A DNA stretch of 35,920 nucleotides from a virus. Taxonomy: Duplodnaviria > Heunggongvirae > Uroviricota > Caudoviricetes. Numbering within the stretch: position 1 is the first letter of the stretch; every line of letters begins with the position of its first letter. Both the position numbers and the translations under genes were made by a program. The notes beneath the pieces are model-generated. The model saw only the letters and a list, made by a program, of their open reading frames with translations. It was not told the origin of the DNA and made no database searches. The stretch spans positions 1 through 35,920 of IMG/VR virus record IMGVR_UViG_2529293138_000008, one strand, 5' to 3'. Positions 2,734-11,562 of the stretch are shown in pieces.

Positions 2734-3072
2734 ATGCTGAAGCAACGCCGTAATTTTCGCACCGAAACGGAACGCCAAGCTAACCGTTTCGCTACCAGCG
2801 CATCACGCAGCAACATCCGCTACAGCCTGAGCGAGACGCACGCAACGCCAGATGGCCATACAGTAAAACAAATTGGCGAACACACCTGGCTGATTGAAAA
2901 AGCTGGAATCGTGGTTCACAGATGCCAACGCAACCCATTTACCGGAAACCGCATTTTTGCACTAAGCAGCGGCGACAATCAGTTCGGGCAGGATTTCACA
3001 TTATACGAAGCACTTCGCACGGTTGATCGTCTGCTTCGCGGGCAAAGTTTTATTAAACAGACTGATTTATAA
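2734..3072 (+). CDS. Hypothetical early protein
   Basis: 112-aa ORF in the early operon, tightly packed after the cox-like gene. No domain recognised. Confidence 0.5.
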   Translation: MLKQRRNFRTETERQANRFATSASRSNIRYSLSETHATPDGHTVKQIGEHTWLIEKAGIVVHRCQRNPFTGNRIFALSSGDNQFGQDFTLYEALRTVDRLLRGQSFIKQTDL

Positions 3073-3082
3073 CAGGTGCGTT

Positions 3083-3361
3083 ATGATCAAAGAGCATGCA
3101 CAAGGTGTATTTATCCGTTTTATTGATTTTCGCGGTGAACTGTTATTGCGCGCATCAGCTATTGATGGAGTTGTCCCATCAGAAAAAAATGCAGCTACTT
3201 ACGTTTATCTGAACGGCACGCGCCTGACCGTAGAACTTCCGTACCAGACTGTACAAGGAATCATTAGCGAAGCTGAAAAAGCACGTAAGATTAATGGCGA
3301 TGAACCCTATATCGAAATTATTTGTATGGATTCAGAAGCTGAAATTCAGAAAGCAGATTAA
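3083..3361 (+). CDS. Hypothetical early protein
   Basis: ORF track 3023..3361; start moved to ATG 3083, which follows an aggtg SD. No domain recognised. Confidence 0.5.
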   Translation: MIKEHAQGVFIRFIDFRGELLLRASAIDGVVPSEKNAATYVYLNGTRLTVELPYQTVQGIISEAEKARKINGDEPYIEIICMDSEAEIQKAD

Positions 3362-3372
3362 AGGGCGTTGCG

Positions 3373-3615
3373 ATGGGCAAAGAATATAAAACTCTCATTA
3401 ACAAAGCACTTGAGCGTTTTTATTTTCGCTTAAGTGCATCAGGTGCTCATGCTGAACGTGCAGCCCGTGACTCATTGACCAGGGCAATCCGGAGTCTGTA
3501 TGACGTGGCTTTTTACGCTGATGATCTGGATGCACTTAACGAACTTTCCGAGCTGATCTGTGCCGCAGAATGCGGGGAGCATATTGAACCGTATAAGCTA
3601 GGGAATATTGCATGA
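3373..3615 (+). CDS. Hypothetical early protein
   Basis: 80-aa ORF, co-directional and tightly spaced in the early operon. Confidence 0.5.
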   Translation: MGKEYKTLINKALERFYFRLSASGAHAERAARDSLTRAIRSLYDVAFYADDLDALNELSELICAAECGEHIEPYKLGNIA

Positions 3616-4339: not shown

Positions 4340-4729
4340 ATGATTGACGCTCATGACTTCACAAGATGGGTGCGCACACAGGACACCCGTCTGGCTCCCG
4401 TTCTCCAAGGATTATTTGATCTTTACATCCGTGGTCGTGACAACAGAGCACGCACTACAAAACCGGAGAATGTGGATACCCTTTATTTCACCGTAGACGA
4501 CTGCTACCGCGTGGACTTCACACCACACGGACTGGCGTTGCACTGCCTGACACCGCACGGCGAATCACTGCTGGCATATTACGACTCCCCGGCCTCCGTA
4601 TTTGCGGCAATGCTGGCGCATCGCACTGCTGGCGGGTGTGCCTCGCTGAGTGAATACACCGCTGAATTTAACCGCCTTTCCACCATCTTCTTGCAGGAGT
4701 GGCAGCGCGTGACGGGATACCAGCCATGA
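4340..4729 (+). CDS. Hypothetical early protein
   Basis: 129-aa ORF immediately upstream of the replication gene; its stop overlaps the A start (ATGA). Confidence 0.5.
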   Translation: MIDAHDFTRWVRTQDTRLAPVLQGLFDLYIRGRDNRARTTKPENVDTLYFTVDDCYRVDFTPHGLALHCLTPHGESLLAYYDSPASVFAAMLAHRTAGGCASLSEYTAEFNRLSTIFLQEWQRVTGYQP

Positions 4730-7566
4730 GTGAGTTTGCATGGAGCTGGAATGAACCACGACCAGCCATTGATCCGGCCAGATTTACGGAGCACAGGCAG
4801 GAAACTGAAACCGACCTGCAACGCGCCATCCGTTACTACCTTGAGGCAGACAAAAAGGCTCTGGAAGAACAGGAAGCGAAGGAGGAAGCCTTTTTCGCAC
4901 AATCCACCGTGGGTAAAAAACTCATGGCATCCCTTGAGGAAGCCGGACAGCGTGAAAAGCTGGCACAAAGCATCATCAGCAAGCGTCAGGCAACAGAACA
5001 AGACCCGGTGGCCCGTGCTTTTGCCACACTGAAGGTGCTTCCCGTTTATCTGCGTGAACCTCTGAGCCGCCACCTCTCTTTCCTGCGCAAAAAACAGGAA
5101 GCCGATCGCCAGAAAGGCAAAAAGAGCTGGCAGGCTGAACGCTACGCGCGCGGAACCCTGCGCAAAATATTCGAACGTCTGGACCGCACCGATCACCGCT
5201 GGCTGACACCGGGTTATCGCTCCCTTGCCGGACGCGAACGCCTGGACGATTTGCTTTACCTGCCGCAGCTCAACAAACACCAGATACAGACGCTGGCCAC
5301 CATGACGGCGGCGATGTTCAGCAGCACCTTCGAAAAACTCTGCGATGGCTTTGGCGCGACTGATGGCGAACTGACCATGGATGTAACGCTGAAGGCGTAT
5401 CAGATGCTGGCCCGCATGGCGTTACACCTGCACGCCATGCCTCCACATTATGACGCACTGACAACAGACAAAGACCGGAGGAACGAACCGGACACGGAGC
5501 TGCTGCCGGGCGCAATCCTTCGCCTGACCTGTGCGGAATGGTGGAAACGCAAACTGTGGCTGTTACGTTGCGAGTGGAGAGAAGAACAACTCCGCGCCGC
5601 CTGTCTGGTTTCCAGAAAAACATCACCCTATCTGAGCCAGGACGCGTTAAGCGAGTTTCGCGCACAGCGCGAGAAAACACGCGATTTCCTGAAAAGTTTC
5701 ATGCTGGAAAATGAAGACGGGTTCACGATTGATCTCGAGACAGTGTATTACGCGGGAGTAAGTAACCCGGTTCACCGTAAGGCAGAAATGATGGCCACCA
5801 TGAAGGGACTGGAACTTCTGGCCGAAGCCCGTGGCGACAGAGCGGTGTTTCTGACTGTCACCTGCCCGTCAAAATACCACGCAACAACGGAGAACGGTCA
5901 TCCGAACCCCAAATGGAACGGGGCCACCATGCGCGACTCCAGCGATTACCTGGTTAACACGTTTTTTGCGGCGGTCCGCAAGAAACTGAACCGCGACGGC
6001 CTGCGCTGGTATGGCATCCGCACGGTGGAGCCTCACCATGACGGCACCGTGCACTGGCATATGATGGTCTTTGCTCATCCGGAAGAAATCGACACCATTG
6101 TGTCCCACACCCGCGATATTGCCATTCAGGAAGATTGTCACGAGCTGGGCGATGATATTACTCCGCGCTTTAAGGCGGAGTATGTCGACGGCTCAAAAGG
6201 CACGCCAACCAGCTACATCGCCACCTACATCGGAAAAAACCTGGACAGCCGCGCCGTGGATGGCATCGACCCGAAAACAGGCAAACCACGCGTTGACCAC
6301 GAAACCGGAAAATCAATGGCGGAGAGCGTGGAGCGCGCCATCGGCTGGGCGCGCCTTCACCGGGTCCGCCAGTTCCAGTTCTTTGGCATCCCCTCCCGTC
6401 AGGTGTGGCGTGAACTGCGCCGCCTTGCCAGCCAGATGGCACGCAACCCGGAAGGCCCGCAACGGCTGAAGGACGACGCAATGGATGCGGTACTCGCTGC
6501 CGCTGATGCCGGGTGTTTTGCCTCCTACATTGAAAAACAGGGTGGCGTACTTGTTCCACGCAAGGACTACCTGATTCGCACCGCCTACGACCTCGCAGAT
6601 GAGCTGAACGATTACGGCGAACAGAGCGTACAGATTTACGGGATCTGGTCACCACTCATCGGGGAATCCTCCCGTGTGTGCACGCACCCGGATAACTGGA
6701 AGCTGGTAAGACGTAAACCGGAAGCGGAAGACAGCGCCCGCGAAAATGGTTTTGACCTTCAGGGCGGCCCTGCCGCCCCTTGGACTCGTGGCAATAACTG
6801 TCCCCGTGTACAGGAAACGGACAACAACGGGACAGAACAGCCGGAAGAACGGCCAGCACCGTGGCCGCAGCTCCCTGACGGCGTTGAAGTAAACGAATGG
6901 ATGCGCTCACTGAAACGGCACGAACGCCGGGCGCTGATGCGTTCGCTTCGTGACAAACAGGCAAAAAACAGCAGTGATGAAATGCAGAGCTGGACACAGA
7001 GCCGCAAACAGCAGCGGCCTTTGCCTGATAACCACGAGTTACTCGCTAAAGAATGGCGGGAGTCTGCCGAATCTCTCGGCCTGCATATCGGTGAACAGCA
7101 GATGCAGCACCTGTTACGGGGCGGCAGCCTGTACGTTGACGGCAGCATCATTGCACCGCAGGGATATGAAATTGTACGCAAACCGGATACCCGCCCGGAC
7201 AGCCGGATCACGCAGCTCTGGCAACGCCTGAGCCGTAATCACGGCGTAAGCAGCACGGAGATCCGCCATAACCCGGTCGCCAGCTATCTGGAACAACTAG
7301 GGGCATCAGCCCCTGAAGCCGCCGCACGCCTGGCATCCACACTTCAGCAGAACCAGAACACCATGAAAACACCCGTTACCGTACTTTCTGACATGCTGCG
7401 CGCTATCCGTGACGCAGAGCACGCACAGAGAATCAGTGAAACCACTGAACGCGCCCGCCGCAAAGCAGACCTGCTGCGGGGTGGCCTGACCAGTGGAAAC
7501 AAAAAACAGACAGAAACGGGATTCACAAATCCCGTAAATGAGCAAAAGACGCGCCGCGATATATGA
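4726..7566 (+). CDS. A: Rolling-circle replication initiation protein (P2 gpA-like)
   Basis: ORF track 4699..7566; ATG 4726 chosen for stop-start coupling. Contains a metal-binding HWHMMVFAH motif and an active-site tyrosine region YIATYIGK. Position after the early genes matches P2/186. Longer than P2 A as I recall it. Confidence 0.85.
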   Translation: MSEFAWSWNEPRPAIDPARFTEHRQETETDLQRAIRYYLEADKKALEEQEAKEEAFFAQSTVGKKLMASLEEAGQREKLAQSIISKRQATEQDPVARAFATLKVLPVYLREPLSRHLSFLRKKQEADRQKGKKSWQAERYARGTLRKIFERLDRTDHRWLTPGYRSLAGRERLDDLLYLPQLNKHQIQTLATMTAAMFSSTFEKLCDGFGATDGELTMDVTLKAYQMLARMALHLHAMPPHYDALTTDKDRRNEPDTELLPGAILRLTCAEWWKRKLWLLRCEWREEQLRAACLVSRKTSPYLSQDALSEFRAQREKTRDFLKSFMLENEDGFTIDLETVYYAGVSNPVHRKAEMMATMKGLELLAEARGDRAVFLTVTCPSKYHATTENGHPNPKWNGATMRDSSDYLVNTFFAAVRKKLNRDGLRWYGIRTVEPHHDGTVHWHMMVFAHPEEIDTIVSHTRDIAIQEDCHELGDDITPRFKAEYVDGSKGTPTSYIATYIGKNLDSRAVDGIDPKTGKPRVDHETGKSMAESVERAIGWARLHRVRQFQFFGIPSRQVWRELRRLASQMARNPEGPQRLKDDAMDAVLAAADAGCFASYIEKQGGVLVPRKDYLIRTAYDLADELNDYGEQSVQIYGIWSPLIGESSRVCTHPDNWKLVRRKPEAEDSARENGFDLQGGPAAPWTRGNNCPRVQETDNNGTEQPEERPAPWPQLPDGVEVNEWMRSLKRHERRALMRSLRDKQAKNSSDEMQSWTQSRKQQRPLPDNHELLAKEWRESAESLGLHIGEQQMQHLLRGGSLYVDGSIIAPQGYEIVRKPDTRPDSRITQLWQRLSRNHGVSSTEIRHNPVASYLEQLGASAPEAAARLASTLQQNQNTMKTPVTVLSDMLRAIRDAEHAQRISETTERARRKADLLRGGLTSGNKKQTETGFTNPVNEQKTRRDI
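7516..7535. repeat. 20-bp palindrome acgggatt-caca-aatcccgt (copy 1, inside 3' end of A)
   Basis: Read directly: 8-bp inverted arms with 4-bp spacer; conserved flanks aaacggg...cccgtaaa shared with copy 2. Confidence 0.6.
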
Positions 7567-7642: not shown

Positions 7643-8602
7643 ATGAAAATTTGTATCGACGACGGCTCCACCAACATCAAGCTGGCATGGACTGAGAACG
7701 GCGAACGCCGCAACGCCATCAGCCCGAACAGCTTCAAGTCGGAATGGTCTGCGCCGTTCGGTGGCACGACGCCTGCAAACTACATGCTTGATGGCGTGCG
7801 CTATGGTTTTGATCCGGTCAGCGATCGCTTTGTCCAGACGACCGACACGCAATATCAGTACAGCGATGTGAATGTCATTGCCATACATCACGCACTGCTC
7901 AAATCAGGCATCACACCACAGGAAGTGGATGTGGTTGTCACCCTGCCACTGAGCGAGTATTTCGACACAAACGCCCAGCCGGATATGACCAACATCAACC
8001 GCAAAAAAGCGAACGTTATGCGACCGGTGGAATACCAGAACGGCGAAGCATTCACTATCCGTAATGTACGGGTTATGCCTGAATCCATTCCGGCTGGCTT
8101 TAAAGCACTGGCTGACATGAGTCCGTTTGAATCCCTGCTGATTGTGGATTTGGGCGGAACCACGCTGGATGTGGCAAAGGTTCAGGGACAACTGGCAGGT
8201 ATCAGCCAGGTGTTTTGCGATCCACACGTAGGCGTTTCACTGATGACCGATGCAGTGCTGTCGGTGATGGCCACCAACGGTATGCGTACCAGCCACCACA
8301 TCGCCAATACCATTATCGAACATCGCCACGATGAAACCTGGCTGCGCCAGCACATCCACAATGACGCGCATTACGCCAGCCTGATGGCGGTTATTAGTGA
8401 AAAGGAAGAAACACTGAAACAACGCGTGATCCGTGCGCTGGCGGGTTTTTCGGGTTACGGGCGGGTGATGGTTGTCGGTGGCGGGGCGGAGATTGTGGCA
8501 CCCGCTATCCGCGAAGCCTGCGGAGTTAATGCGACTTTCATCGCGGACGGGGTGCCACAGTTTGCTCTGGTTAATGGGCTGTACGCAATGGACAAGGAGT
8601 AA
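7643..8602 (+). CDS. parM: ParM/StbA-like actin-type segregation ATPase
   Basis: N-terminus MKICIDDGSTNIKLAW matches plasmid R1 ParM (MLVFIDDGSTNIKLQW, from memory). Further matches recalled: ISPNSFK, YSDVNVIAIHHALL, VMPESIPAG, DLGGTTLD, GGGAE. Length 319 aa, same as ParM. Confidence 0.8.
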   Translation: MKICIDDGSTNIKLAWTENGERRNAISPNSFKSEWSAPFGGTTPANYMLDGVRYGFDPVSDRFVQTTDTQYQYSDVNVIAIHHALLKSGITPQEVDVVVTLPLSEYFDTNAQPDMTNINRKKANVMRPVEYQNGEAFTIRNVRVMPESIPAGFKALADMSPFESLLIVDLGGTTLDVAKVQGQLAGISQVFCDPHVGVSLMTDAVLSVMATNGMRTSHHIANTIIEHRHDETWLRQHIHNDAHYASLMAVISEKEETLKQRVIRALAGFSGYGRVMVVGGGAEIVAPAIREACGVNATFIADGVPQFALVNGLYAMDKE

Positions 8603-8606
8603 ACCA

Positions 8607-8918
8607 ATGACGACACCAACCAGACGAATAAGTTTCTATCTGAAGCCCGCCGCCGTCAAGAACGAAGGCGAAGCATGCGCCTGGCTGGACAGCCTTACAC
8701 CAGAAGCCCGTAAAAACGGCCAACGCGTGGCTTTTCTGGCCGGGCTGGCGCTTCTGAAAATGAATCCGGCAGAGGCTTACCGACTGGCAGCATGGGCTGA
8801 CGATGAGGCGTTATCAGTGAGACAAACCAGGACAGAACGCCCCCTGTCACAGCCAGTACCAACCGCACAGATAACCAGTCAGATGGCCGGAAATATCAGG
8901 GCGTTATTTCCTGAATAA
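8607..8918 (+). CDS. ParR-like centromere-binding adaptor (putative)
   Basis: ORF track 8472..8918 trimmed to ATG 8607, which follows a ggag SD 4 bp after the parM stop. About 103 aa. ISFYLKP...LDSLTPEAR...AFLAGLALL...ALFPE parallels R1 ParR (IAFKLNP...DSIPQGERS...ALTAGLALY...SLFPKE, from memory). Confidence 0.5.
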   Translation: MTTPTRRISFYLKPAAVKNEGEACAWLDSLTPEARKNGQRVAFLAGLALLKMNPAEAYRLAAWADDEALSVRQTRTERPLSQPVPTAQITSQMAGNIRALFPE

Positions 8919-8981
8919 CACAACGTCAGGGCGAGTTCGCCCTGATCTCCATCTCAGAACATAAACAAGAAGAGCGACTTA

Positions 8982-9365
8982 ATGAGCAAAATCAACTATC
9001 AGGCATTACGTGAACGTTATTCACCTGCACCAGTACCAAAATGCCCTATTTGCGGCGAAGAAATGTCAATTCAGCGAATATCTGGATCACAGGTTGTTTA
9101 TGCCTGCTCCGGTTATGGTGATGATGGAGATTTCAAAATTGGTCGAACTCTTGCCGACGAACATTATGAAAAATCACGCGTAACAGTGTTGGATGTCGGG
9201 GATCCTGAAGTATTGGCGCTACTTGATTGGCTGGAAACCAAAGACAACCGAATCGCTGAACTGGAGAAAATCGCCACTGACTATGCACTTAAATTCCAGA
9301 AAGCACAGGACGCATTAAAGTACGCCGCTTTGCTGCATAGCAGGACAGCGCAGCTACAAGACTAA
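8982..9365 (+). CDS. Hypothetical protein with N-terminal zinc-ribbon-like motif (cargo)
   Basis: 127 aa; CPICG ... C...C near the N-terminus, C-terminal predicted helical. Occupies the P2 tin-like position. Confidence 0.5.
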   Translation: MSKINYQALRERYSPAPVPKCPICGEEMSIQRISGSQVVYACSGYGDDGDFKIGRTLADEHYEKSRVTVLDVGDPEVLALLDWLETKDNRIAELEKIATDYALKFQKAQDALKYAALLHSRTAQLQD

Positions 9366-9393
9366 CTTAAAGCGGAAGATTAATACATGGTGA

Positions 9394-9420
9394 GTCGGGA
9401 TAATTTGTTTTTATCCCGAC
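9394..9420. other. Hairpin between convergent cargo genes (possible terminator)
   Basis: gtcgggata-N9-tatcccgac stem-loop, read directly. No clean U-run on either strand, so terminator function is uncertain. Confidence 0.3.
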
Positions 9421-9455
9421 AAATAAACAAAAAAGTGGACTATCTCTGTAGTATC

Positions 9456-9986
9456 TTATTCAGCATCGTCTCGTGCAGTCTGTGCATACGTCACAACAAC
9501 GCCCAATGCATTAGTTTTCTTTTCAACATAGATAATATTGTCATATTCATAGTTACCATACGGATAGCAAATAAGAATATTTTTATGCAGATCGGGATCA
9601 TCAACAAACGCTCCGGAACAGCTTCTTGAACTACCGGATGTATACTCATACGGTGCAACATATGATGATGTTACTCCTGGTAAAAAATAAGTCACCATCA
9701 TAAGAGGGATAATCAGGAATATCCCTGTAAGAATGCAAGAGCCAGCATAAACCTTCAGGTATTCCGACAGTCCTTTCCAGCCACTTTGCTTCACTACCCC
9801 CCTCTTCACCAGAAACAAGGAGAAGAAAAAGGACATACCCATACTACACAAGATGTAATAATTGGATATACGCGAATTAAGATATGTAATCCTGTAGATA
9901 TCTGCCCTCCACCAGTAAAAGAGGAAAATAATCCCTAGCACTGAAACAGTCATGCAAATCAAATAAGGATATGAATCTTTCTTCAT
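9456..9986 (-). CDS. AT-rich integral membrane protein (about 3 TM helices plus C-terminal soluble domain), cargo
   Basis: 176 aa. Hydrophobic segments LICMTVSVLGIIFLFYWW, YILCSMGMSFFFSLFLV, AGSCILTGIFLIIPLMMVTYFL. Visibly lower GC than flanking phage core. Same position and orientation as P2 old (next to cos, minus strand). Confidence 0.55.
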   Translation of the reverse strand: MKKDSYPYLICMTVSVLGIIFLFYWWRADIYRITYLNSRISNYYILCSMGMSFFFSLFLVKRGVVKQSGWKGLSEYLKVYAGSCILTGIFLIIPLMMVTYFLPGVTSSYVAPYEYTSGSSRSCSGAFVDDPDLHKNILICYPYGNYEYDNIIYVEKKTNALGVVVTYAQTARDDAE

Positions 9987-10463
9987 GTCTTGCGCTCATT
10001 AAAATTTCCCTGCTACGAACAAATTTACCATCCGTTTTTTGCGCAGAAAACAGCACGATGCACACTGCACGATAGTGCACAAATTTGCACAATTTTTTTG
10101 AACGACTTTTTACCCTTCCGGCCCGCATGGCGGCTGGATCCGTCAAGGATCCGTGCGTGCACAAAAAAACGCGTTTTTCTGCGCGCAGGTGACGGGGGAA
10201 CAGCCCGCGTTTCAGGGGGTAAATAGCATTCCCTGAGCGATGTCGCAGCGACACAACAGAATGGCTGTATTTCTCACGCTGAGCGTGAAAAAGACGTAAG
10301 GGTTTTTGATTTGATGGGTTGAAAGGTAAGGCCGTCAAAATCGCACTGAGGCGGCGAGAACATACAGTCAACGCGGTGGGATTGCGTAAGAGCCTGACCG
10401 TCGATGGTGGCGATAAACTGGAAGGCGTCGTGAAATTATCTGACTGATACAGGAACTGGAGAG

Positions 10464-10488
10464 TCGGGGCATAAATTTTTTATGCCCC
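10464..10488. other. Hairpin just downstream of portal gene (possible terminator or cos-associated structure)
   Basis: cggggcataaa-ttt-tttatgccccg, read directly. Confidence 0.3.
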
Positions 10489-10515
10489 GGCGAAGCAGCA
10501 GGCAAGCGAAGCGCG

Positions 10516-11562
10516 TCAGGCTGTGGGCTGGGTGTCTAACAGTGCGTAAGGGTTAAAGCGGATCACCTCTTCGCCCAGCCAGTCATTGATGTGCTTCATG
10601 GCCTCCATGACGGGCATCAGCTCGTTAATTGCGTAAACCCGCGCGGCCTTCTCCACATCACCAAACGCACTTTTTTCACCCGGCATCGCCCCCATCAGTT
10701 GCGGCGGAACGCGGTGCGCAGCCAGCACATCATCACGGGATGCCGCCTTAACATTCATGAACTCATCCTTTGCGGTGATCTGCTGGAACGGCAAAATTTG
10801 CACCCCCTCTTTGCCCCCGTTGGGCGCATGAATGAGCACGTTTTTAAACGCACCACCACCACGTGCACCCTGTAGCGTTTCTTTCAGGGAGTCCATGCTT
10901 TCGCGGTTTACCTGCGCTGCACCGATGTAGATGATGCACCCGGCGTGGGATCCGTTGTCGTAATACAGTTTTCTGAACATGTCCGCCGAATGAGACAGGC
11001 TGGCCGAGAGTAATGCGCCGAGATATTCCGGCATGCCGTAGATTTCCTGGTTAATGTCAGGATTCATCAGGTGGCACACTTTGCCAGGGCGAAACTGAAA
11101 CGCGTCCTTACCATCCTGCACATACCACCATGATTCAAGATCGCTTCCGCGTCGCATGTATTTCGCCAGGGCGTGCCGTAATTTAAGCGGTTCGCCGAGC
11201 ATATTGCTTCGAAGCTCAAGGAATGCGTTACCGAACACAAACCAGTCCAGCGCCAGCGCCGAGAAATCCTGCCGGGAAAGCAGCGGGTGCGGAATATAGC
11301 AGCCGAGCAATACATTGCGCTTAAAGTAAAGCGCAGACTGATGCCAGGACGTTTGCCGGGCAGCTCTTGCCAGACCGTACCAGTCCACCGGGGTTTCATA
11401 CCATCGCCCGTTATCGGCACAGTACATATTGTCCAGTAAATCATGCCCGGTCAGGCGGTAAGGGCCGTCAAATGTGAATGCACTGAGCGATGATTCTTTC
11501 CTGAGCGCATCAGCGAGATCAATGCGTGAACTCATGCGCACTTTTTTATTTTTTCTGCTCAT
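10516..11562 (-). CDS. Q: Portal protein (P2 gpQ-like)
   Basis: 348 aa (P2 Q is about 344 aa). Divergent from the capsid operon and adjacent to the large terminase, as in P2. Confidence 0.9.
   Translation of the reverse strand: MSRKNKKVRMSSRIDLADALRKESSLSAFTFDGPYRLTGHDLLDNMYCADNGRWYETPVDWYGLARAARQTSWHQSALYFKRNVLLGCYIPHPLLSRQDFSALALDWFVFGNAFLELRSNMLGEPLKLRHALAKYMRRGSDLESWWYVQDGKDAFQFRPGKVCHLMNPDINQEIYGMPEYLGALLSASLSHSADMFRKLYYDNGSHAGCIIYIGAAQVNRESMDSLKETLQGARGGGAFKNVLIHAPNGGKEGVQILPFQQITAKDEFMNVKAASRDDVLAAHRVPPQLMGAMPGEKSAFGDVEKAARVYAINELMPVMEAMKHINDWLGEEVIRFNPYALLDTQPTA

Follow-up and report, generated by a model that had tools for sequence, protein, structure and literature searches.

The locus and its variable cargo slot

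The DNA analysed here, a stretch of 35,920 nucleotides that we refer to throughout as the window, belongs to a P88-like (Xuanwuvirus) prophage of the P2 family. Between its replication gene A and its portal gene Q, next to cos, where cargo of the gpA–gpQ hotspot of P2-like phages is found (Rousset et al. 2022), it carries two genes, ORF1 and ORF2, which are convergent and separated by 90 bp. Specifically, to the left of the slot come replication gene A (PF05840, GPA at 4699–7566), ParM and ParR, in this order, and to its right the portal (10516–11562) and terminase genes. An initial annotation had described the same two convergent frames, with the same overall span and lengths, between replication/partition genes and cos/portal, and on these points our analysis agrees with it. 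The elements that enter the argument below are as follows, with the basis for each in brackets:

8969–10063, no strand: variable cargo slot of the gpA/parMR-to-portal hotspot of P88-like phages (breaks in flank homology)
8982–9365, plus strand: ORF1, Ead/Ea22-like, 127 aa, ATG start (PF13935, phrog_368)
9353–9367, no strand: putative recombination junction, at which the incoming ORF2 cassette meets the resident Ead gene (homology breakpoints)
9368–10123, minus strand: ORF2 cassette, a putative moron made up of ORF2 with its promoter region and 3′ hairpin (blastn boundaries)
9394–9420, minus strand: hairpin with a 10-bp stem and 7-nt loop, 36 nt past the ORF2 stop (RNA fold)
9456–9986, minus strand: ORF2, predicted inner-membrane protein, 176 aa, ATG start (ORF list, hydropathy, AlphaFold2)
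9459–9677, minus strand: ORF2 C-terminal domain, residues 104–176, predicted five-stranded OB-like beta-barrel (structure model)
10022–10030, minus strand: candidate extended −10 element TGGTAAATT for ORF2 (conservation of upstream regions)
10059–10092, minus strand: four GTGCA / TTGTGCA direct repeats with 7–10 bp spacing (upstream of the candidate promoter)
10160–10186, minus strand: terminator-like hairpin that has a T7 run and separates the portal operon from the candidate ORF2 promoter (consensus scan)

Five further open reading frames, at 9387–9629 (+), 9010–9183 (+), 9133–9288 (−), 9491–9661 (−) and 9877–10371 (−), were judged spurious because all of them are contained in, or opposite to, the two conserved genes or cover non-coding DNA of the backbone. 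When cos was sought by its likeness to the P2 19-mer, the best match (13/19, at 10188–10206) was too weak to call.

Backbone homology to P88, Shae_phiSM and other Xuanwuvirus phages ends at about 8968 and restarts at about 10064. Comparison of the slot across related P2-like prophages, which the initial annotation had suggested, found at least six fillings among P88-like phages and prophages with flanks 93–97% identical, such that content differs between otherwise near-identical phages. The ORF2-type filling is a minority, found in 62–77 of about 1307 genomes with a P88-type backbone, and in other P88-like prophages the slot is filled by an intact Ead gene alone, without ORF2. Anti-phage genes are known to collect in the gpA–gpQ hotspot (Rousset et al. 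2022, PMC9122126), which has also been described in PMC13586616, where 19% of P2 elements had solely unknown genes at the main defence locus, and where six of eight randomly picked unknown P4 loci gave protection against phages.

ORF1 is a truncated member of the Ead/Ea22 family

The protein encoded by ORF1 matches PF13935 over residues 2–117 with 102.8 bits (cut-off 27, E 3.1e-29) and phrog_368 with an E value of 1.8e-27, and its RefSeq product name is ‘ead/Ea22-like family protein’. The gene has a GC content of 45.1% and runs in the direction of the early, replication and parMR genes; the Ead homologs of ES18, ST64B and D6 are likewise co-directional within the early operon. Ea22 proteins consist of an N-terminal domain, a coiled coil and a lineage-specific C-terminal domain, and with lambda Ea22 and P22 Ead ORF1 shares the N-terminal domain and the coiled-coil layout (PMC7093339, PMC10834534). 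However, all characterised or full-length homologs have a variable C-terminal domain, and this is absent from ORF1, which is thus a truncated member of the family. ORF1 also differs from Ea22 in location, lying downstream of parMR in a P2-type phage rather than between exo and xis, and from lambda Ea22 and P22 Ead in having a conserved C3H motif in its N-terminal domain.

The motif consists of C21, C24, C42 and H61, and all four positions (CPxC for the first two) are invariant in the homologs from ES18, ST64B, D6 and P88_4B11. The initial annotation had taken ORF1 for a zinc-ribbon protein; what survives of this is a plausible C3H zinc site, as judged from conservation, rather than a canonical four-Cys ribbon. 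Every match to the Pfam zinc ribbons fell under its cut-off (best 17.5 bits against 25.3), and the zinc-ribbon check gave no match among solved structures.

Over residues 1–124, ORF1 shares 96.8% identity with gp56 of P88_4B11, a protein of 196 aa; three unrelated residues and a stop codon follow. The 196-aa form is intact in sister phages, and RefSeq tags ORF1 in an identical arrangement as ‘incomplete; missing C-terminus’. These alignments indicate that what remains in ORF1 is the 5′ two-thirds of a resident Ead/Ea22-type early gene. Homology to P88_4B11 and to strain SMN152SH1 stops at 9352, and homology to phage 434, mEp332 and 2B8 begins at 9368. Adjacent DNA would have been replaced at the hotspot, such that the resident Ead gene lost its C-terminal domain and the ORF2 cassette came to lie beside it. 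Since the domain was lost in this way, ORF1 would be, at best, a crippled version of a gene tied elsewhere to the lysis/lysogeny decision, and it is probably a decaying pseudogene without function.

The arrangement of ORF1 and ORF2 occurs at 98% identity or more in 62 complete E. coli genomes. As the DNA of these is about 98% identical, the co-occurrence reflects common descent and not repeated selection. The breakpoints indicate that the apparent pair is a recombination composite in a hotspot, not a two-gene system.

ORF2 is an intact gene in a mobile cassette

ORF2 has a GC content of 38.8%, against 51.6% for the window. Compared with three alleles whose synonymous sites are near saturation its dN/dS is about 0.1, which argues that ORF2 is a real gene under strong purifying selection and not a chance reading frame. 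It cannot be longer, because two in-frame stops lie 3–4 codons upstream of its ATG, and the start MK(K/N)-SY is common to all members of the family, including Salmonella proteins of 173–176 aa. The genes for these Salmonella proteins have a GAGG Shine-Dalgarno sequence; the Shine-Dalgarno sequence of the E. coli ORF2 alleles is weak. The exact ORF2 protein is present on at least 1000 contigs, and the family, which groups into 61 clusters at 90% identity and has 57 representatives at 50%, includes no named member. Its starts are annotated inconsistently, giving proteins of 176, 188, 200, 207 or 223 aa. At the identical locus, and likewise in strain H3, RefSeq (PGAP) labels ORF2 as ‘frameshifted’. 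We attribute this label to comparison with a 200-aa reference start: the added stretch runs across the conserved −10 element without being conserved itself. We note that the dissenting annotation remains.

The unit 9368–10123 is shared with lambdoid phages at 76% identity by blastn. Of 5426 complete E. coli genomes 1000 carry it, 77 of them at 99% identity or more and about 920 at about 77%, and the pathogens O157:H7 and O104:H4 are among these carriers. In the exo–xis region of 434, mEp332, 2B8 and O157:H7 prophages, the cassette lies with its own flanks and runs antisense to the early-left operon; in all phage contexts seen, ORF2 has this orientation relative to the early operon. Unrelated P2-like prophages of Salmonella carry the cassette as well, in the gpA–gpQ hotspot and beside neighbours that differ, and there the region upstream of ORF2 is shared with the window. 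Phage 434, the roughly 920 E. coli genomes, the Salmonella P2-like prophages and chromosomal sites all carry ORF2 without an Ead neighbour. Most P88-like and lambdoid phages lack ORF2; a tblastn search of 50,697 phage records returned the 434 group only, with no annotated match. More distant homologs are solo chromosomal genes in more distant bacteria, with neighbours such as yqeI/yqeJ-like regulators, an scr-type LacI/LysR pair and metabolic genes, and one adjoins DUF4062/TPR STAND-type genes. Such ordinary chromosomal contexts fit a role in host physiology as well as one in defence.

Distinct base composition, together with occurrence of the same unit, with its own flanks, in unrelated phages, marks a moron, and both are found here. 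By these comparisons the actual cargo of the slot is ORF2, a self-contained, AT-rich moron with its own candidate promoter and 3′ hairpin. We regard the anatomy as a whole, that is a composite origin, a solo ORF2 cassette and an intact ORF2 gene, as highly probable.

Candidate control elements of ORF2

The upstream regions of the window, 434 and three Salmonella P2-like prophages were aligned. An extended −10 element, TGnTAAATT, is found in the window, in 434 and in the Salmonella loci that bear P0037, and takes the form TGATAATTT at the P0046 locus. As a generic sigma-70 consensus scan of 8800–10600 found no promoter, we infer the ORF2 promoter from this conservation across contexts. Further upstream, four GTGCA repeats fall on one strand within 32 bp, against about 0.04 expected from the window-wide density, and the Salmonella P2-like contexts conserve them, as 434 does in part; the cluster is possibly an operator. 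The hairpin at 10160–10186 would insulate ORF2 from late read-through.

At the other end of the gene, the 9394–9420 hairpin folds on both strands, and a 90-nt segment of the ORF2 strand has a minimum free energy of −18.4 kcal/mol (z −3.35). It is retained in 434 and O157 via compensatory changes (GGGAT/ATCCC to GAGGT/ACCTC) and has no clean U-tract. It is probably a 3′ end or terminator element.

Predicted structure of the ORF2 protein

A hydropathy scan places hydrophobic segments at residues ~8–27, 42–60 and 80–103, and an AlphaFold2 model (mean pLDDT 79) has helices at 5–33, 38–61 and 69–101, so that the earlier description of an AT-rich membrane protein with about three transmembrane helices stands. 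Across 17 homologs, the 16 residues of loop 2 bear a mean of +4.3 charges, the C-terminal domain is acidic and the positive-inside pattern is consistent; together with the three transmembrane helices this predicts an inner-membrane location, and confidence in the structure models is high. Each cytoplasmic loop is predicted to be about 19 residues at most. The N-terminus is therefore predicted to be cytoplasmic and the C-terminal barrel of about 70 residues to be periplasmic, which answers the question of topology that the initial annotation had raised. This predicted barrel is the most conserved part of the protein. In it, C123 and C140 alone are invariant among 17 sequences, and these two cysteines are predicted to form a disulfide bond. 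The domain had been called Tyr/Gly-rich: with 9 Tyr (12%) and only 5 Gly in its 73 residues, it is Tyr/Ser-rich, and the Tyr half of the claim alone is retained.

The family search gave no Pfam and no NCBIfam match for ORF2, and its sole PHROG match is that of the C-terminal half to phrog_1416, of unknown function. The initial annotation had recognised no family for either protein, which for ORF1 does not hold and for ORF2 needs only this addition. PADLOC-DB, searched with both proteins at E ≤ 1, returned 0 families, so that the anti-phage assignment proposed earlier finds no match for either protein in any PADLOC defence model. Because the fold search with the full-length ORF2 model gave only generic matches to transmembrane helices with large rmsd, a domain-only model was made; searches of BFVD and the PDB gave no specific match, and the barrel has no defence-associated fold. 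Literature on the ORF2 protein, mEp332, phage 434 exclusion, the 434 genome and Xuanwuvirus gave no characterisation of the protein.

Several candidate relatives were rejected. The protein ‘memP’ of Citrobacter phage Shae_phiSM, encoded in the same slot and on the same strand, is unrelated to ORF2 (hhalign probability 0.5%). E. coli YqeK came into view as a relative because of where the distant homolog P0070 lies and because P0080 is 141 aa long; K-12 YqeK is unrelated (hhalign probability 0.08%, BLASTP E 0.63), and genomic position alone coincided. In P0103, a giant repeat protein of 3074 aa, 11 stretches match the C-terminal domain, but the likeness is a weak two-Cys resemblance in a surface-repeat protein.

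Comparison with known systems

The minus strand of the P2 reference carries tin and old, which run in the direction of Q/P and towards A, from a transcription start some 150 bp away from cos. This layout is shared by ORF2, as the initial annotation had noted for old: ORF2 resembles old-tin in position (gene A to cos/portal), strand, convergence with the early operon and a cos-side promoter, which for ORF2 is a candidate. However, there is no similarity in sequence or domains. Old is an ABC-ATPase/TOPRIM nuclease and Tin is soluble, whereas ORF2 is a small protein with three predicted transmembrane helices and no Pfam or PADLOC match.

HK97 gp15, P22 SieA and T4 Imm/Sp are moron-encoded membrane proteins that act in superinfection exclusion. 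ORF2 resembles the gp15/SieA/Imm type in being a small predicted inner-membrane protein, encoded as a single gene in an autonomous, AT-rich, opposite-strand cassette of a temperate phage; phage records, PHROGs, BFVD and PDB gave no homology or fold likeness to known Sie proteins. Short NfeD proteins of the YbbJ/YuaF type have transmembrane helices and a C-terminal OB-fold, and in the models ORF2 has a similar overall architecture, with about three transmembrane helices followed by a small five-stranded beta-barrel. It has neither an NfeD HMM or specific fold match nor an SPFH partner gene, by which a short NfeD would be recognised.

A possible role in superinfection exclusion

We tentatively propose, as a reading that is somewhat more apt to be wrong than right, that ORF2 is a stand-alone, prophage-expressed envelope protein that blocks superinfection by an exclusion mechanism. 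It would be transcribed against the early operon from the cos/portal side, made in the lysogen, and work by itself on the periplasmic side of the inner membrane, where its barrel might bind either a host inner-membrane component used in phage genome entry or an ejection protein of the incoming phage, and such binding would block the superinfecting phage. We counted for exclusion the composite origin, the autonomy of ORF2, the conserved non-coding elements, the old/tin position, dN/dS, topology and the minority filling; counted against it were the absence of likeness to PADLOC families, named PHROGs or Sie proteins, the lack of a specific fold match, the sigma-70 scan without a promoter, the weak E. 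coli Shine-Dalgarno sequence, the chromosomal settings of distant members and the RefSeq label ‘frameshifted’.

The same evidence bears on other functions. ORF2 could be a lysogenic-conversion or host-physiology envelope factor, serving stress tolerance, transport, colonisation or a periplasmic process as a fitness gene on prophages. That distant members are single genes in non-prophage chromosomal contexts is in keeping with this, as are the frequency of ORF2 in pathogens such as O157:H7 and O104:H4, the virulence-type morons carried by phage 434 (PMC9119081) and a periplasmic barrel without a defence-associated fold. However, close homologs recur in two recognised phage hotspots that house exclusion genes, one distant member sits beside DUF4062/TPR STAND-type genes and no neighbour points to a host pathway. 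We consider such a role plausible but unlikely. A solo abortive-infection effector, which upon infection would depolarise or permeabilise the inner membrane and kill the cell before phage release, seems quite improbable: small multi-TM proteins are frequent effectors of hotspot systems (PMC9122126), and ORF2 lies in a hotspot and stands alone in every context, but its short cytoplasmic loops leave no domain able to sense infection, conservation peaks in the predicted periplasmic barrel, and there is neither a conserved partner sensor nor a PADLOC match. It is very improbable that ORF2 serves the phage's own cycle, setting lysis/lysogeny, induction or lysis timing via a host membrane complex. 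[quoted passage not shown]

Two further readings concern both genes. The PGAP labels at the identical locus (‘incomplete’ for Ead, ‘frameshifted’ for ORF2, as in strain H3) and the frequency of pseudogene-like recombination remnants in such hotspot loci (PMC13586616) might suggest that both are functionless pseudogenes decaying after recombination. For ORF2 this is countered by the intact 176-aa frame with its family-wide start, by dN/dS, by the exact protein on so many contigs and by the origin of the ‘frameshift’ in a 200-aa reference with a non-conserved extension, such that decay of both genes is extremely improbable. The initial annotation had instead joined a zinc-ribbon protein and ORF2 in one two-component exclusion or abortive-infection module, and the genes are indeed adjacent and convergent in a defence hotspot and kept together in the 62 genomes. 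We give this hardly any credence, and reject it on distribution and breakpoints: ORF1 is a 3′-truncated remnant, the two halves have different homology partners with their junction at 9353–9367, and more than 900 genomes, phage 434 and Salmonella have ORF2 but no ORF1, just as intact Ead fills the slot without ORF2. The genes are also on opposite strands with separate signals, and their co-occurrence is by common descent.

Extending the proposal of exclusion, ORF2 might be the first of a novel family of anti-phage factors that work as single proteins at the level of the envelope, with the barrel intercepting genome delivery and the cassette mobile between P2-like and lambdoid prophages and chromosomal islands. 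This we think somewhat unlikely; if true, about 18% of E. coli genomes, and the classical phage 434 too, would carry such a family unnoticed.

Implications

The annotation of this locus should be corrected, in that ORF2 is an intact 176-aa gene and not a frameshifted one, and ORF1 a remnant of the ea22 family and not a novel zinc-ribbon partner. ORF2 is one of the unknowns of the hotspot and a tractable one, being a single small gene with its own candidate control region that is widespread and present in a model phage, 434. If it does not exclude phages, it would be a candidate lysogenic-conversion envelope factor in pathogens. If it does, it would represent a new envelope-level protein family and provide an account of a conserved antisense gene in the long-puzzling exo–xis region.

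Locus organisation and phage background

Judged by its sequence, the window belongs to a P88-like phage (Xuanwuvirus, Peduoviridae), with flanks 93-97% identical to phage P88, P88_4B11, Citrobacter phage Shae_phiSM and others. An ORF reading places both genes of the initial annotation where it had put them, convergent and with their stop codons 90 bp apart:

8982-9365, plus strand: ORF1, 127 aa
9456-9986, minus strand: ORF2, 176 aa

To the left of ORF1 are a P2-type replication gene A (PF05840, E 3e-130), parM (StbA_N/ParM) and a parR-like gene (Plasmid_stab_B), and to the right of ORF2 are the portal and large terminase genes, both on the minus strand. The GC content is 51.6% for the window, 45.1% for ORF1 and 38.8% for ORF2. 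The membrane protein had been likened to P2 old in place and orientation, which agrees with the P2 reference record, where tin and old are on the minus strand in the same direction as Q and P, and transcription of old-tin begins some 150 bp from cos.

Two further features of the backbone were observed. Between gene A and the hotspot, this integrating P2-family phage has a full plasmid partition module of the actin type (ParM and a ParR-like protein; 7643-8918). The P88-type parMR backbone is found in ~1307 of the 5426 complete E. coli genomes (~24%). The portal stop codon ends at 10516 (minus strand), and about 30 bp further downstream, at 10463-10485, is a perfect 10-bp inverted repeat, GGGGCATAAA-TTT-TTTATGCCCC, whose location is similar to that of the annotated P2 terminator tQ.

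A variable hotspot

The backbone shared with other P88-like phages is lost at about 8968 and regained at about 10064, and this slot is the gpA-gpQ hotspot of P2-like phages described previously (Rousset et al. 2022, PMC9122126; PMC13586616). The initial annotation had proposed cargo here, and the locus does vary, with six other fillings seen among P88-like phages and prophages. The window's own cargo is present in only 62-77 of the ~1307 E. coli genomes with the parMR backbone.

Slot contents in P88-like relatives
P88: ClpX-zinc-finger-like gp19 and three small ORFs
P88_4B11 and E. coli SMN152SH1: an intact 196-aa Ead/Ea22-like gene only
Shae_phiSM: a 172-aa membrane protein, 'memP'
Another P88-like relative: a DUF4760 protein and a hypothetical protein
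Another relative: no annotated gene in the slot; a 174-aa gene adjoins portal
Another relative: an IS3 element with rearrangement

Shae_phiSM 'memP' was ruled out as an ORF2 relative, being unrelated by hhalign. P88 gp19 (2883-3215 of the P88 locus), labelled 'carboxylate--amine ligase', occupies the position of ORF1 and has a CxxC...CxxC motif; it resembles the ClpX-type zinc-binding domain, the record's own note names ClpX, and the product name looks mis-annotated. In the P1-like phage D6 a gp19 homolog (3169-3489 of that locus) immediately follows the Ead/Ea22-like gene. A second insertion point adjoins the 3′ end of the portal gene (window ~10519-10541; compare related loci L004, 5009-5533, and L022, 6473-6997), where some P88-like prophages carry WP_000236489.1, a 174-aa hypothetical gene on the plus strand that the window lacks.

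ORF1 is a truncated Ead/Ea22-like gene

The initial annotation recognised no family for ORF1; however, it matches Pfam PF13935 (Ead/Ea22-like) over residues 2-117 at 102.8 bits (cut-off 27), and phrog_368 with E 1.8e-27, and its RefSeq name agrees. Its homologs ES18 gp41 (274 aa), ST64B Sb32 (205 aa) and D6 orf92 (222 aa) share with it the N-terminal ~82 residues, in which C21, C24, C42 and H61 are invariant, followed in those proteins by a coiled-coil segment and a C-terminal domain that differs in each. This is the three-part architecture of Ea22 (PMC7093339; PMC10834534), and ORF1 lacks the third part. The zinc ribbon proposed for it is better read as a conserved, plausible C3H zinc site than as a canonical four-Cys ribbon, all Pfam zinc-ribbon models scoring under threshold. 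Residues 1-124 show 96.8% identity to gp56 of P88_4B11 (196 aa), after which come three unrelated residues and a stop, and PGAP labels Ead at the identical loci of E. coli 14EC020 and strain H3 'incomplete; missing C-terminus'. As in ES18, ST64B and D6, the gene is co-directional with the early operon. ORF1 is therefore a truncated member of a known family, not a novel protein, and likely a decaying pseudogene.

ORF2 is an independent, mobile cassette

The locus is composite in origin. Window 9368-10123 is homologous to the lambdoid phages 434, mEp332 and 2B8 (76% DNA and 79.5% protein identity), an interval that begins three bases past the ORF1 stop and includes the hairpin between the ORFs, ORF2 itself and 137 bp of its upstream DNA. 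Since the breakpoint (9353-9367) is where ORF1 stops matching the intact Ead gene, one replacement event accounts at once for the truncated ORF1 and the newly arrived ORF2.

The cassette resides in hotspots of two phage families. Phages 434 and mEp332, like the att-lambda (ybhC) prophage of O157:H7 and other strains, carry the homolog in the interval from xis to exo, on the strand opposite to the early-left operon. Salmonella homologs, 66% and 56% identical, occupy the gpA-gpQ hotspot of P2-like prophages without ParM or Ead, always in the direction of the portal gene and with varying neighbours (81-aa, 119-aa or 100-aa ORFs, or a YafO toxin). Among 5426 E. coli genomes 1000 carry the cassette, 77 with the window allele (>=99% identity) and ~920 with the ~77%-identity lambdoid allele.

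In 434 (4755-4925 of that locus) and mEp332 a co-oriented 56-aa ORF, predicted to encode a membrane protein, lies ahead of the ORF2 homolog and may be a component of the lambdoid version; the window keeps only DNA matching its 3′ end (10062-10123), so it is not needed for ORF2.

The distant members, drawn from 50%-identity representatives, are single genes in ordinary chromosomal settings, of which three may serve as examples: one neighbours yqeI/yqeJ-like genes, another lies between an scr-type LacI gene and a LysR gene, and a third, P0064, lies on two metagenomic contigs (L033/L034; 1-6510; 7688-8539) beside two large DUF4062/TPR (STAND-like) proteins and, on one of them, an Anti-Pycsar Apyc1-like metallo-beta-lactamase-fold gene, which suggests a defence/counter-defence neighbourhood. 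No conserved partner gene was found in any context examined (lambdoid, Salmonella or distant members), which argues that the ORF2 protein works alone. The initial annotation had treated the two genes as one module, a reading that we find scarcely credible: the cassette recurs without Ead in Salmonella, and intact Ead stands alone in the P88_4B11 slot.

An intact reading frame under constraint

The exact locus (window 8982-10031) recurs in E. coli 14EC020 (1115-2164) and strain H3 (5340-6389), where RefSeq/PGAP annotates both genes as pseudogenes and labels the one identical to ORF2 'frameshifted'. The label appears to be an artefact, the reference being a lambdoid protein given as 200 aa long. 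In the window the ORF2 ATG is preceded, 3-4 codons away, by two in-frame stops; the family alignment begins at MK(K/N)-SY in all members, where the Salmonella genes have a GAGG Shine-Dalgarno; the 24-aa N-terminal extension of the 200-aa reference is not conserved and overlaps a conserved candidate -10 element; and lambdoid starts are annotated inconsistently (176, 188, 200, 207 and 223 aa across records). ORF2 is under purifying selection, with pairwise dN/dS of 0.08-0.15, synonymous sites near saturation and most constraint in the C-terminal domain, and at least 1000 contigs encode the identical protein. By these sequence measures ORF2 is an intact, constrained gene, and decay to a pseudogene, to which the PGAP labels would point, is very improbable.

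The upstream region and the 3′ end carry these elements:

10022-10030, minus strand: TGnTAAATT, a candidate extended -10 motif conserved in an upstream-region alignment of the window, 434 and three Salmonella prophages
10059-10092, minus strand: four GTGCA/TTGTGCA direct repeats, 7-10 bp spacing, just upstream of the candidate promoter
10186-10160, minus strand: hairpin of terminator type with a T7 run, separating the portal operon from the ORF2 upstream region (consensus scan)
9394-9420, minus strand: 10-bp-stem hairpin downstream of ORF2, present in the predicted RNA fold of a 90-nt segment (MFE -18.4 kcal/mol, z -3.35)

A generic sigma-70 scan found no promoter here, and the candidate one is assigned from conservation. 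The GTGCA motif, not enriched window-wide, forms a strong local cluster of four copies on one strand in 32 bp, and a 90-bp stretch holds three of the five TTGTGCA heptamers in the window (see also 10158-10164). Salmonella P2-like prophages keep the (T)TGTGCA repeats ahead of their ORF2 homologs, and 434 does so in part; since the distal ones are also kept in P88-like phages lacking ORF2 (backbone homology from 10064), the cluster may be a shared operator or recombination point. Compensatory substitutions preserve the stem of the 9394-9420 hairpin in 434, and it has no U-tract.

An uncharacterised family of predicted membrane proteins

Word-seeded and exhaustive HMM searches gave a family of 61 clusters at 90% identity, with 57 representatives among 1.84 billion 50%-identity clusters; full-length members are mostly 165-190 aa and none has a functional name. 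Neither ORF2 nor the distant members match Pfam, NCBIfam or PADLOC, and the sole PHROGs match of ORF2, phrog_1416 (function not assigned), covers its C-terminal half. In no test did ORF2 show homology to Old, Tin, known defence models, known Sie proteins, NfeD or YqeK. We found no characterisation in the literature and no curated model; ORF2 represents an uncharacterised protein family.

A comparison of 17 diverse members shows a basic N-terminus (+1.6) and loop 2 (+4.3 over 16 residues), a nearly neutral loop 1 and an acidic C-terminal domain, from which the positive-inside rule predicts a cytoplasmic N-terminus and a periplasmic barrel. C123 and C140 are the sole invariant cysteines, and the barrel is probably disulfide-bonded. 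Eleven repeats of P0103, a giant 3074-aa surface-repeat protein, match the two-Cys core of the C-terminal domain (summed E 1.4e-9), probably a superficial resemblance in Cys spacing.

Proposed function

The most likely function of ORF2, we tentatively propose, is to exclude superinfecting phages at the genome-entry step. The cassette occupies a site at which temperate phages carry exclusion genes, the protein has no cytoplasmic domain able to sense infection, its best-conserved part is predicted to face the periplasm, and unassigned genes at such loci have a high anti-phage hit rate, activity having been found in 6 of 8 P4 loci carrying genes without assigned function (PMC13586616). ORF2 would be expressed in the lysogen from its own promoter, as old-tin is in P2, and its product would act at the periplasmic face of the inner membrane.

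The main rival, a host-envelope or lysogenic-conversion factor, draws on the chromosomal, non-prophage setting of the distant members and is possible, if rather unlikely. That the protein is a solo Abi effector we consider distinctly unlikely, and a role in the phage's own life cycle very unlikely. ORF2 behaves like a known kind of element, the membrane-protein moron of a prophage hotspot. It is unsurprising in kind, yet very common, present in phage 434 and in major pathogens, and easily testable.
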